This document shows positions 42,704 to 45,436 of a stretch of 64,000 nt of DNA, piece by piece. The stretch is from contig CBDCDZ010000004.1 of the NCBI GenBank assembly GCA_965215565.1, positions 1,248,001-1,312,000 of the forward strand, read 5' to 3'. A model generated the notes under the pieces. The model did not search any database. It saw only the letters and a list, made by a program, of their open reading frames with translations, and was not told the DNA's origin. Source of the DNA: Trueperaceae bacterium. Lineage in GTDB: Bacteria > Deinococcota > Deinococci > Deinococcales > Trueperaceae. How positions within the stretch are numbered: position 1 is the first letter of the stretch; every line of letters starts with the position of its first letter. The position numbers and the translations under genes are program-made.

Positions 42704-42814
42704 TAGCGGTTATTAGAAGTATTAAATTGAAATAGCGCAGATATCATCCTACAATGTGCGTGCTAGTCGTTGTTCTATCATGTGAGATTGGCTCAAACCA
42801 GATGATACCTGCTA
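42704..42814 (-). mobile_element. MITE-like repeat family A copy (short variant; unoccupied IS110 target)
   Basis: tagcggtt...ctcaaaccagatgatacctgcta. Confidence 0.8.
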
Positions 42815-43046
42815 TAAACGTTTCCCCGAGCGCTTTTCTCGGTGATATGGGATGAAGCGGAATCCGTATCGGGTTAGCAGTTCCAAAACATACTGAGACA
42901 GATTACTGCAGGTCTCTGTCCGTAGGACTAGCGGGATTTCATCTCCGCAAGTGCGTGCCAGTTACGCAGTTTGCTGCCTAGCAACGGTAACTCGCATAGT
43001 GAGAATGTGAGAATGTCTCAAACCAGATGAACTTAGTATAGAGTTG

Positions 43047-43985
43047 TCAAGCCCCCTTCCACCTCTGTGGGTGCTGCTGAGTGACTTGCAGCATGAAACG
43101 AAAGAGTTCTCTTGCGAGATAGGTTTTGAGACTTCTTAGAGCAGCCCGGCGGGTCTTGCCTTGCTGCTGTTTCTTGTCGAGATAGGCTCTTGTCGGTTCG
43201 CTGTGGCGCAGTCTGACTTGGGCAATCATGTGAAAGGTGCGGTTGAGCCGACGGTTGCCGCCGATGTTGAGTTGCCTTCTCTTCTGACCACCAGAAGAGC
43301 GCTCGACAGGCGCACAACCTGAATACATGGCAAAGGCGTGTTGTGAACGAAAGCGTCGGATGTCACCTGCTTCAGCAAGTAGCGTGGCGGCGTGAACGAC
43401 GCCGACGCCAAAGACCTCTAAGAGTTCAGGCATCAGTTCGTCAACGAGGGCTTTCATCGCCTGCTCGAGCGTCTTGAGTTGTTCTTTAAGCACTGCAATA
43501 ACGGCTTCGACGGCTTGGCGAGCCACCTCTAGCTCAAGGCTCGCTAAGCTCAGCTTGTGCGCTGTAAGCTGTTTAGCTAGCGCTTCTCGGGTGCGGGTCA
43601 GATGTTTGAGGTCTTCAACCGCTTGCCGAGGTGCAAACGTAGTCAGCTCAGGATTAGCCAAAGCAGCCCGAGCTACGTTTTCAGCGTCTACCTCATCACT
43701 CTTCTTGCGTCCTCTTTTGCTGCGGTACTGACTCGTCAGACTCGGACTAATGTCCACAACCTTATGGTCCTGCCCGAGCAACGCTTGACTCAACCTCCGA
43801 GCAAAGGGGTTATTCGCCCCTTCAATAGCGCACCGCTGAACGTCATAGCGCTTTATCCAGTGCTCCAAAGTTGCCAAGCCCTCAGCCGTATTCGTAACGG
43901 TGCAGTGACCTAATACCTTGCCCTGTTTATCTAACGCTGCTGCGGTATGGCTCTGCGGATGTGGATCAACCCCTATAATGACCAT
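43047..43985 (-). CDS. IS110-family DEDD recombinase/transposase
   Basis: IGVD, IEG, KSDEVDA (DEDD); GVGVVHAA, F..YSG.AP..RSSG (catalytic Ser), GGNRRLN. Confidence 0.95.
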   Translation of the reverse strand: MVIIGVDPHPQSHTAAALDKQGKVLGHCTVTNTAEGLATLEHWIKRYDVQRCAIEGANNPFARRLSQALLGQDHKVVDISPSLTSQYRSKRGRKKSDEVDAENVARAALANPELTTFAPRQAVEDLKHLTRTREALAKQLTAHKLSLASLELEVARQAVEAVIAVLKEQLKTLEQAMKALVDELMPELLEVFGVGVVHAATLLAEAGDIRRFRSQHAFAMYSGCAPVERSSGGQKRRQLNIGGNRRLNRTFHMIAQVRLRHSEPTRAYLDKKQQQGKTRRAALRSLKTYLARELFRFMLQVTQQHPQRWKGA

Positions 43986-44004
43986 ACAACCTCCTTAGGT
44001 TGCT

Positions 44005-44143
44005 GCTCACGGTAGCTGCTTATCCGTCTATGAGGCTACTAAGCGTCTTAGTATCAGGCAAGCTCCGTGTAGCTTAGTGAGCGAGGTGTGCAGTTCATCT
44101 GTTAGCCCTAAAGCTGATACTTGCTGGGCATCACCTCGCTTCT
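44005..44143 (-). ncRNA. Predicted bridge RNA (target-binding loop and donor-binding loop)
   Basis: Two stems with internal loops. Loop segments AGCAAGUAUC and CAGAUGA match the target; AUACUAAG and AUAGACGGA match the donor junction. Confidence 0.82.
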
Positions 44144-44185
44144 CTTAATATACGGATACCTGCTAAGGTGTTAGACTCAGGACTT

Positions 44186-45436
44186 ATGACCCTCCGAACT
44201 GCCAGAGGCACCTTTGATATTTTGCCCGAGGACCAACCTCGTTATAGGGCGCTCTACAGCGCGGCTGAGCGCGTGCTAGGGGGCGCGGGCGTTTTAGAAA
44301 TCGCTACGCCCATCTTCGAATATACCGAGGTCTTTACCAAGTCAGTCGGCGCGTCGTCGGACCTCGTGGTGCAAAAGGAGATGTACACCTTTGAGAAGGG
44401 CGAGCGCTCCTTGACCTTGCGTCCCGAATTTACGGCGGGCGTCCTGCGCGCCTATATCGAGAACGGGCTGAGTAGCCGCCGGACGCCTGTCAAGCTGTGG
44501 AGCAAGGGTCCGGTCTTTCGCGCCGAACGCCCTCAGCGCGGCAGGTTCCACCAGTTCCACCAGGTCAACTGTGAGTTGTTGGGGCTCGAGACGCCCCTCA
44601 TCGACGCCGAGGCGGTTGCGCTCCTCTACACGGTCCTGAGGGAATGTGGGCTCAGCGAACTGCGCGTCAAACTCGGCTCGGTAGGTGACCCCGAAGATAG
44701 GGCGCGCTACAACGATTACTTGAGAAACGAGCTTCGCGCGGCGGACCTTTCCGAAACCTCGCGAGAACGCCTGCGCCTCAACCCGATGCGCATTTTGGAC
44801 TCTAAAGACGAAAAGGACCAGGGCGTCATCCGCGATTTGAAACGTCCGCTGGACTTTCTCAACGAGGACGCTGCCGCGCACTTCGGGGCGGTCAAGGGCT
44901 ATTTGGAAGCGTGGCGTATTCCCTTCGACGTGGACGACAGCATCGTGCGCGGGCTCGACTACTACCGCCGCACCGCCTTTGAGATTCACCACGGCAGTAT
45001 CGGCGCGCAGTCCGCGCTCTGCGGCGGCGGACGTTACGACGGCCTAGTCGAGAGCATGGGCGGGCCGCCGACGCCCGGCGTCGGCTGGGCGTTCGGTGCG
45101 GAGCGCGTCTTGGACGCTATGAACGAAGAGAACGTCGCCCTCCCCGCTGCCCCGCGCCCCGCGCTCTTTCTCGTGCCGATGGACGAATTTGCTATAGGAG
45201 AGGTTGCGCAGACCGCGCTGCGCCTCCGCCCCACCTTTTGGGTTGAACATGCGTATACTAAGCGCAACCCCGGCAAGGGGCTTAAAGAGGCGGACCGCGC
45301 CGGGGCCCACTACGCCGCCCTGCGCGGCTCCAAAGAGCGCCAAGAAGGGGTTTACAGCGTGAAGCACCTGGGGTCGGGCGAGCAGACGCAGGTGCCAGAA
45401 GGTGAATTAGGGGCGTTCCTAAAAGCGCATACTTAA
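44186..45436 (+). CDS. hisS: Histidine--tRNA ligase
   Basis: KEMYTF, LRPEFTAG, FRAERPQRGR, VRGLDYY, GGGRYDGL. Confidence 0.97.
   Translation: MTLRTARGTFDILPEDQPRYRALYSAAERVLGGAGVLEIATPIFEYTEVFTKSVGASSDLVVQKEMYTFEKGERSLTLRPEFTAGVLRAYIENGLSSRRTPVKLWSKGPVFRAERPQRGRFHQFHQVNCELLGLETPLIDAEAVALLYTVLRECGLSELRVKLGSVGDPEDRARYNDYLRNELRAADLSETSRERLRLNPMRILDSKDEKDQGVIRDLKRPLDFLNEDAAAHFGAVKGYLEAWRIPFDVDDSIVRGLDYYRRTAFEIHHGSIGAQSALCGGGRYDGLVESMGGPPTPGVGWAFGAERVLDAMNEENVALPAAPRPALFLVPMDEFAIGEVAQTALRLRPTFWVEHAYTKRNPGKGLKEADRAGAHYAALRGSKERQEGVYSVKHLGSGEQTQVPEGELGAFLKAHT

Follow-up and report, generated by a model that had tools for sequence, protein, structure and literature searches.

The element analysed here belongs to the IS110 family of insertion sequences, and the closest known system is IS621 of E. 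coli (PMC11208160, PMC11208158, PMC13626964), together with its orthologue IS622/ISCro4. Our element shares with IS621 a recombinase that combines a DEDD motif with a serine, a long left and a short right end, and a promoter across the joined ends with a predicted start about 14 nt past the core; IS621 itself has a 191-bp left end and a 177-nt RNA. Also common to both are predicted target and donor lobes with a nine-over-seven discontinuous right donor guide and handshake bases, an ATA/TAT subterminal repeat, and insertion in a dispersed intergenic repeat. The two systems differ in several respects: the proteins are only distantly related; the core is TC here and CT in IS621; a 5' stem-loop is lacking here, the target lobe beginning at nt 34 in IS621 but at nt 1 (predicted) in our element; the right target guide is 7 nt long as opposed to 4; the left donor guide mismatches positions 7-8 and reaches two bases further 5'; and the phylum of the present host can use promoters made of a -10 motif only.

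Further systems bear comparison. ISPpu10 and ISPpu9 of P. putida (10.64898/2026.03.19.712850, PMC12288879) are likewise multi-copy IS110 elements lodged in repeated extragenic sequences, and ISPpu10 likewise has a hybrid junction promoter that takes its -35 from the right end and its -10 from the left end (10.64898/2026.03.19.712850); their core is CT and their target a REP sequence, whereas the target here is a TA-bounded repeat of 100-220 bp. CazIS110-1 (10.1101/2025.10.25.684509) likewise has an upstream non-coding RNA, of ~170 nt with two loops (77 and 87 nt), as does ISEc21 (PMC11187229), which also has a junction promoter and for which a 58-74-nt RNA suffices for transposition; hosts and targets of both differ from ours.

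Set against these systems, the locus in the window (the whole 64,000-nucleotide stretch of DNA that was analysed) is very probably an IS110 element that occupies one kind of host repeat, and whose ends would build a strong sigma-70-type promoter on the circle, which likely drives a compact two-lobe RNA starting at the target stem. The mechanism is known, and the features in which this element varies (TC core, no 5' hairpin, possible activity of a lone -10) are modest.

An IS110 Element at One Position of a Host Repeat

The element is 1,124 bp long (window positions 43031..44154) and lies on the minus strand, as do all features of the element and of its target given below, with one TC core at each boundary. 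Seven full copies are present on the chromosome, each of 1,124 bp; six are identical and one carries a single substitution. All seven have TAGCAGGTA-TC as their left flank and TC-ATCTGGTTTGAG as their right flank, and the insertion point is the same in 7/7 copies, at the same position of a dispersed host repeat. The left (44155..44156) and right (43029..43030) core dinucleotides are identical in all seven copies, and unoccupied target sites hold a single TC. Since the bases beside the core are unlike in target and donor on the left as well as on the right, the shared core is exactly TC. The element boundaries proposed in an earlier, sequence-only reading are borne out by this one insertion point shared by seven copies with TC at both edges.

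The left end (169 bp) contains the RNA, and the right end comprises only the 16 bp after the stop codon (43031..43046), which hold the left-donor sequence and the left arm (43040-43036) of a 5-bp subterminal inverted repeat, TATAC/GTATA, that surrounds the donor. Characteristic of the IS110 group are the long left and short right ends, the shared short core and the ATA/TAT subterminal inverted repeat, to which computation adds a predicted bridge RNA whose target- and donor-binding loops are complementary to both DNAs, and sequence with conservation adds a promoter sequence reconstituted across the joined ends. Members of the IS1111 group have subterminal repeats of 7-17 bp and an RNA in a long right end; the repeat here is 5 bp and the right end 16 bp. 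IS621-like elements have a CT core with a near-invariant T at position 9 and a 5' stem-loop ahead of the target lobe; all 18 tabulated elements of our set have a TC core, and the predicted start leaves no such stem-loop. Judged by these sequence features, the element is an intact IS110-group insertion sequence and an ordinary member of a known family.

The recombinase (312 aa, 43047..43985) contains the Pfam domains PF01548 and PF02371 and scores 171 bits against NCBIfam model NF033542 (cut-off 140). The alignment shows that D7, E55, D97 and D100, corresponding to a RuvC-like DEDD motif, and S231, the C-terminal catalytic serine, are all conserved. Comparison with the IS621 and ISCro4 structures gave a distant match only (E 3e-16). 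Residues 55-58 (window 43812-43823) are invariant E-G-A-N in the clade, and their counterpart in IS621, E60-A-T-G63, is the loop that reads core position 9 (PMC11208158). The E-G-A-N residues may explain the TC core.

Other traces of the element were found on the same chromosome. In a damaged copy (L031, G000:C4 3452691-3453307) the right end is intact and the 5' part is disrupted. At another site (L032, G000:C4 about 3341776-3341813), a repeat copy keeps only the first ~23 bases of the element's left end, including the -10, and is what a deletion has left of an eighth or ninth insertion. A paralogue with 56% identity (L030, G000:C4 421041-421970) differs in its target guide and in the position of its promoter boxes, and its coding sequence contains an internal stop. 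The close relatives of the element, found with an alignment query of genome contigs, are labelled Trueperaceae, and the host is accordingly taken to be a member of Deinococcota. One relative (92% identical, L002:1414-1500) carries an insertion of ~80 bp just past its start codon, and is probably inactive.

A Conserved Promoter Sequence across the Joined Ends

Promoters that form at the circle junction are an established, textbook feature of IS110 elements. When the right end, core and left end of the present element are joined, the sequence TTGACA-18-TATATT results, with a spacer of 14+2+2 = 18 nt. The sequence-only reading had described a perfect -35 at the recombinase stop codon, an 18-nt spacer and a -10 matching at 5/6 positions, and each of these holds. 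The -35 box TTGACA (43045..43050) overlaps the TGA stop codon, while the -10 box TATATT (44147..44152) lies wholly within the left end, is conserved in relatives, and overlaps right-donor bases and the right arm of the TATAC/GTATA inverted repeat. Given the composition of the element, the chance that a perfect -35 falls at any of three offsets is about 6e-4. In the host genome as a whole, TTGACA with a -10 of at least 5/6 is found at 22 sites with 17-nt spacing and 15 sites with 18-nt spacing, and at 2-7 sites for each of the other spacings from 10 to 25 nt.

The same geometry recurs in relatives. TTGACA overlies the TGA stop in 20 of the 21 elements examined, the exception (L039) having been missed by the search pattern. 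A -10 of at least 5/6 is located at exactly 18 nt in 12/15 elements with both ends (the window's included; protein identity 47-100%), which are kin and not independent samples; this set excludes duplicate loci and counts L054, whose right end is without the TC core. The three that fall short are L040 and L041, with 3/6, and L043, with 4/6 at 17 nt. In the paralogue L030, the -35 is 6 nt nearer the core and the -10 is 6 nt deeper in, so that the spacing is still 18. Three elements of Deinococcus sp. QL22 have 5/6, 4/6 and 4/6 at 18 nt; the two with 4/6 boxes are shifted as in L030, and the remaining one is laid out as in the window. Because both boxes are shifted jointly and 18 nt are kept, we argue that the spacing itself is selected. 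Part of the conservation of the boxes is owed to their other roles, TGA being the stop codon and the first -10 bases being part of the donor and the inverted repeat. The conserved geometry supports the proposed boxes as the junction promoter of the element. The circle junction itself was not found in this genome. It was also absent from the contigs of 4/10 listed runs, from viral contigs, and from 363 genomes of the order (0/363); contigs drop rare variants, and these absences are thus no evidence.

A Predicted Two-Lobe Bridge RNA without a 5' Hairpin

Transcription is predicted to start at A44140, a position derived from the fold and from the modal 6-nt spacing after TANNNT in the host. Pairing of the target-binding stem begins at this base, in agreement with the original proposal of a start near 44140 at the base of that stem. 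Fold and guide matches together define a target-binding lobe (44080..44140) and a donor-binding lobe (44005..44073) of the predicted RNA. The left target guide (44125-44116) matches the target at 9/10 positions and the right target guide (44101-44095) at 7/7, with handshake bases AC at 44094-44093. In the donor lobe, the left guide (44054-44045) has 8 matches and then 2 mismatches, and the right guide (44031-44023) is discontinuous as in IS621, with handshake bases UA at 44022-44021. The pairing scheme for guides and handshake bases is that of IS621 (PMC11208158), and under it neither handshake pair fits before strand exchange (0/4), while both fit afterwards (4/4). Across relatives, the left target guide varies along with the left flank.

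The left-end fold beats all 200 shuffles (z = -3.7). In an alignment of 10 short-leader left ends, chosen from 18, with related rows and a structure derived from the same alignment, 17 of the 34 consensus pairs of the two-lobe fold have changes in both partners, and pairing is seen in 95.8% of cells, compared to 26-44% with slid partners; we regard this covariation as support for the predicted fold, not proof. A predicted 3' hairpin (43986..44003) would enclose the Shine-Dalgarno sequence AAGGAGG (43996-43990); 90% of its cells are paired in the 10 left ends, and only 1/5 pairs is changed on both sides. The sole Rfam match, to SNORD60 (E 1.4), is below threshold and was dismissed as chance. 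The left donor guide may also pair alternatively with the bases just 3' of it (UACUAAG/CUUAGUA, window 44040-44056), an arrangement present in the window and in L002 and absent in L051 and L033, and such pairing might make the guide inaccessible as long as the RNA is free.

The sequence-only reading had held that the RNA lacks the 5' accessory hairpin and is minimal compared with IS621, and the predicted structure agrees on both counts. The lobes span about 136 nt with no 5' stem-loop, the target lobe begins at nt 1, and 13 of the 18 aligned left ends share the window's hairpin-less layout, leaving no room for such a structure. Among the other layouts, the leader of L004 is about 9 nt longer and those of L005, L040 and L041 are about 38 nt longer, L005 and L040 folding a hairpin there; L035 has an extra segment that resembles a second left-end start. 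As read from these left ends, the clade contains both forms, with and without room for a 5' hairpin. In the tree, 10/17 inner branches are open, and the sole supported group among the leaders is the long-leader trio L005/L040/L041; with the tree mostly unresolved, we claim no direction for the loss or gain of the hairpin. Recombination by IS621 is only slightly lower when its 5' stem-loop is deleted (PMC11208158), and IS622 functions without it (10.1101/2025.05.14.653916). Our literature search found no description of this element and no report of natural hairpin loss; Fig. 6d of PMC11208160, which presents six diverse RNAs, and the supplements may show cases.

Pairing with the donor beside the core is imperfect, as had been remarked from the sequence: after 8 matched nucleotides the guide reads AC against TT in the donor, and a donor-guide mismatch is common in relatives. 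By the IS621 scheme, this amounts to two mismatches (positions 7 and 8), because the IS621 guide also leaves position 9 unpaired; core position 8 is paired there (PMC11208158). Among 18 elements (2/20 were dropped as unparsed), the donor guide equals the donor over the first 8 nt in 16, and it matches position 7 in only 5 and the first core base in 10. Position 7 is a tolerant position in IS621 (PMC11208160). Judging from the seven near-identical copies, the mismatch has apparently been no bar to recent spread, which marks it as a clade trait rather than damage.

Integrated Copies and the Role of the Circle

According to the sequence-only reading, the promoter is assembled only on circularisation. 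This stands for the full -35/-10 pair, which is confined to the junction, but "only" is probably too strong, because the -10 lies wholly in the left end. In its strict form, the claim denies the integrated element any promoter and makes its transcription dependent on the circle or on host read-through. Several observations agree with it: integrated left ends match at most 3/6 at the -35 in 6/7 copies, no integrated right end exceeds 3/6 at the -10, and the element -10 is not preceded by a TGn extension. The one remaining copy, that in the window, has 4/6 at the -35 (CTAACA, spacing 16), which is at chance level, as 31/220 empty target sites give at least 4/6; CTAACA is the complement of TGTTAG in the promoter of the neighbouring hisS-like gene, and we rejected it as a special feature of this copy. 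IS621 also fits, its excision having required read-through transcription (PMC13626964).

We nevertheless consider such a strict switch unlikely. A -10 motif by itself is reported to suffice as a promoter in D. radiodurans, with higher output when a -35 is present at 17 bp (PMC12340547). In the present host, TANNNT has its peak 6 nt ahead of the first ATG, at 197 of 2,611 ORFs (crude first-ATG calls) against 20-42 at distances of 10-30, and a -35 of at least 4/6 accompanies only 23 of these 197, no more often than the background of 10.5%; the host thus appears to use many -10-only promoters. Moreover, the nearest outside ORF is directed away from the left end in 5/7 copies, so that read-through is not at hand there. 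Linear IS621, too, shows weak transcription, in its case through read-through (PMC13626964). As the left end carries a -10, and promoters of the -10-only type function in Deinococcota and seemingly in this host, basal transcription from integrated copies is likely, and circularisation is more likely an amplifier than an on/off switch.

In the cycle that we propose, integrated copies would be transcribed weakly, via the -10 alone or by read-through. Rare excision would join the ends and add the -35, leading to more bridge RNA and recombinase, and the circle would enter a host repeat at the TC near the left edge of that repeat, in its left end. The handshake pairing, complete only after strand exchange, would favour insertion over excision, and the 3' hairpin may damp translation of the recombinase. 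An equivalent life cycle has been shown for IS621 (PMC11208160; PMC13626964).

Two other alternatives compete with this cycle. Spread mainly by direct transfer without a circle, the junction promoter being seldom used, is improbable: such a pathway has been reported for CazIS110-1 (10.1101/2025.10.25.684509) and the donor guide has mismatches at positions 7-8, but a junction-only promoter would not be conserved unless circles (or tandem junctions) arise and are of consequence. Even harder to credit is a promoter match that arose as a by-product of stop codon, donor and inverted repeat, with the RNA starting elsewhere, for example within the right end of the circular form, from which a 5' hairpin could come; TGA and TAT do have those other roles (PMC11208160, Extended Data Fig. 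10 legend), but the T and CA flanking the stop persist, as does the 18-nt distance, though the spacer varies, the boxes move jointly in L030, L076 and L077, and the right end is merely 16 bp.

The element adds a recently expanded, compact bridge system whose TC core falls outside the CT/GT/AT/TT range of IS621. Its predicted guide is naturally in the trimmed form that engineers obtain by deleting the 5' hairpin, and it could widen the set of orthologues for genome editing. Should the lone -10 be active, it would provide a second answer to the source of the first bridge RNA of IS110 elements. We tentatively put forward, as plausible though somewhat short of probable, a Deinococcota TC-core clade that combines a minimal ~136-nt guide, weak firing of the lone -10 with the -35 as amplifier and no need for read-through, and homing to the ends of a 250-copy repeat that we call MITE-like, a label read from its sequence and not from a family search.

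The Target Repeat and the Neighbouring Gene

The left target half (44157..44165) is the first 9 bp of the dispersed host repeat and is identical in all seven copies; the rest of the interrupted repeat, from the right target half onward, occupies 42875..43028 and ends in GGAACTGCTA. The 13-mer target, which is the left end of the repeat, has 257 unoccupied occurrences on the chromosome. When one mismatch at most is allowed, 312 left ends are counted, and for 169 of them a matching right end lies no more than 300 bp away. The repeat is present in more than 250 copies in this genome and looks undescribed; copies are mostly 100-220 bp long, TA-bounded, with a terminal inverted repeat TAGCAG/CTGCTA, an internal palindrome and modular inserts. 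Its motif occurs in 6/40 other genomes of the family. The window contains two copies, one at 42704-42814 and the interrupted one at 42875-43028 plus 44157-44165.

A search of the genome for an autonomous partner of the repeat gave three IS630-type matches and one Y1 match; repeat-matching ends were not found at the two IS630 regions examined, and no autonomous partner emerged there. The presence of one repeat copy (L068, G000:C4 1933083-1933193) inside an IS630-like pseudogene, which it interrupts, suggests mobility of the repeat itself.

Next to the element, a hisS-like gene, so named from a reading of its sequence and not from a family search, has an extended -10, TG-N-TAGACT (window 44169-44188), 8 nt above its ATG, which is probably a leaderless promoter. 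We considered whether the element disrupts hisS expression and rejected this, as the promoter is outside the repeat and is conserved in 3/3 relatives, which at that site have neither repeats nor IS.
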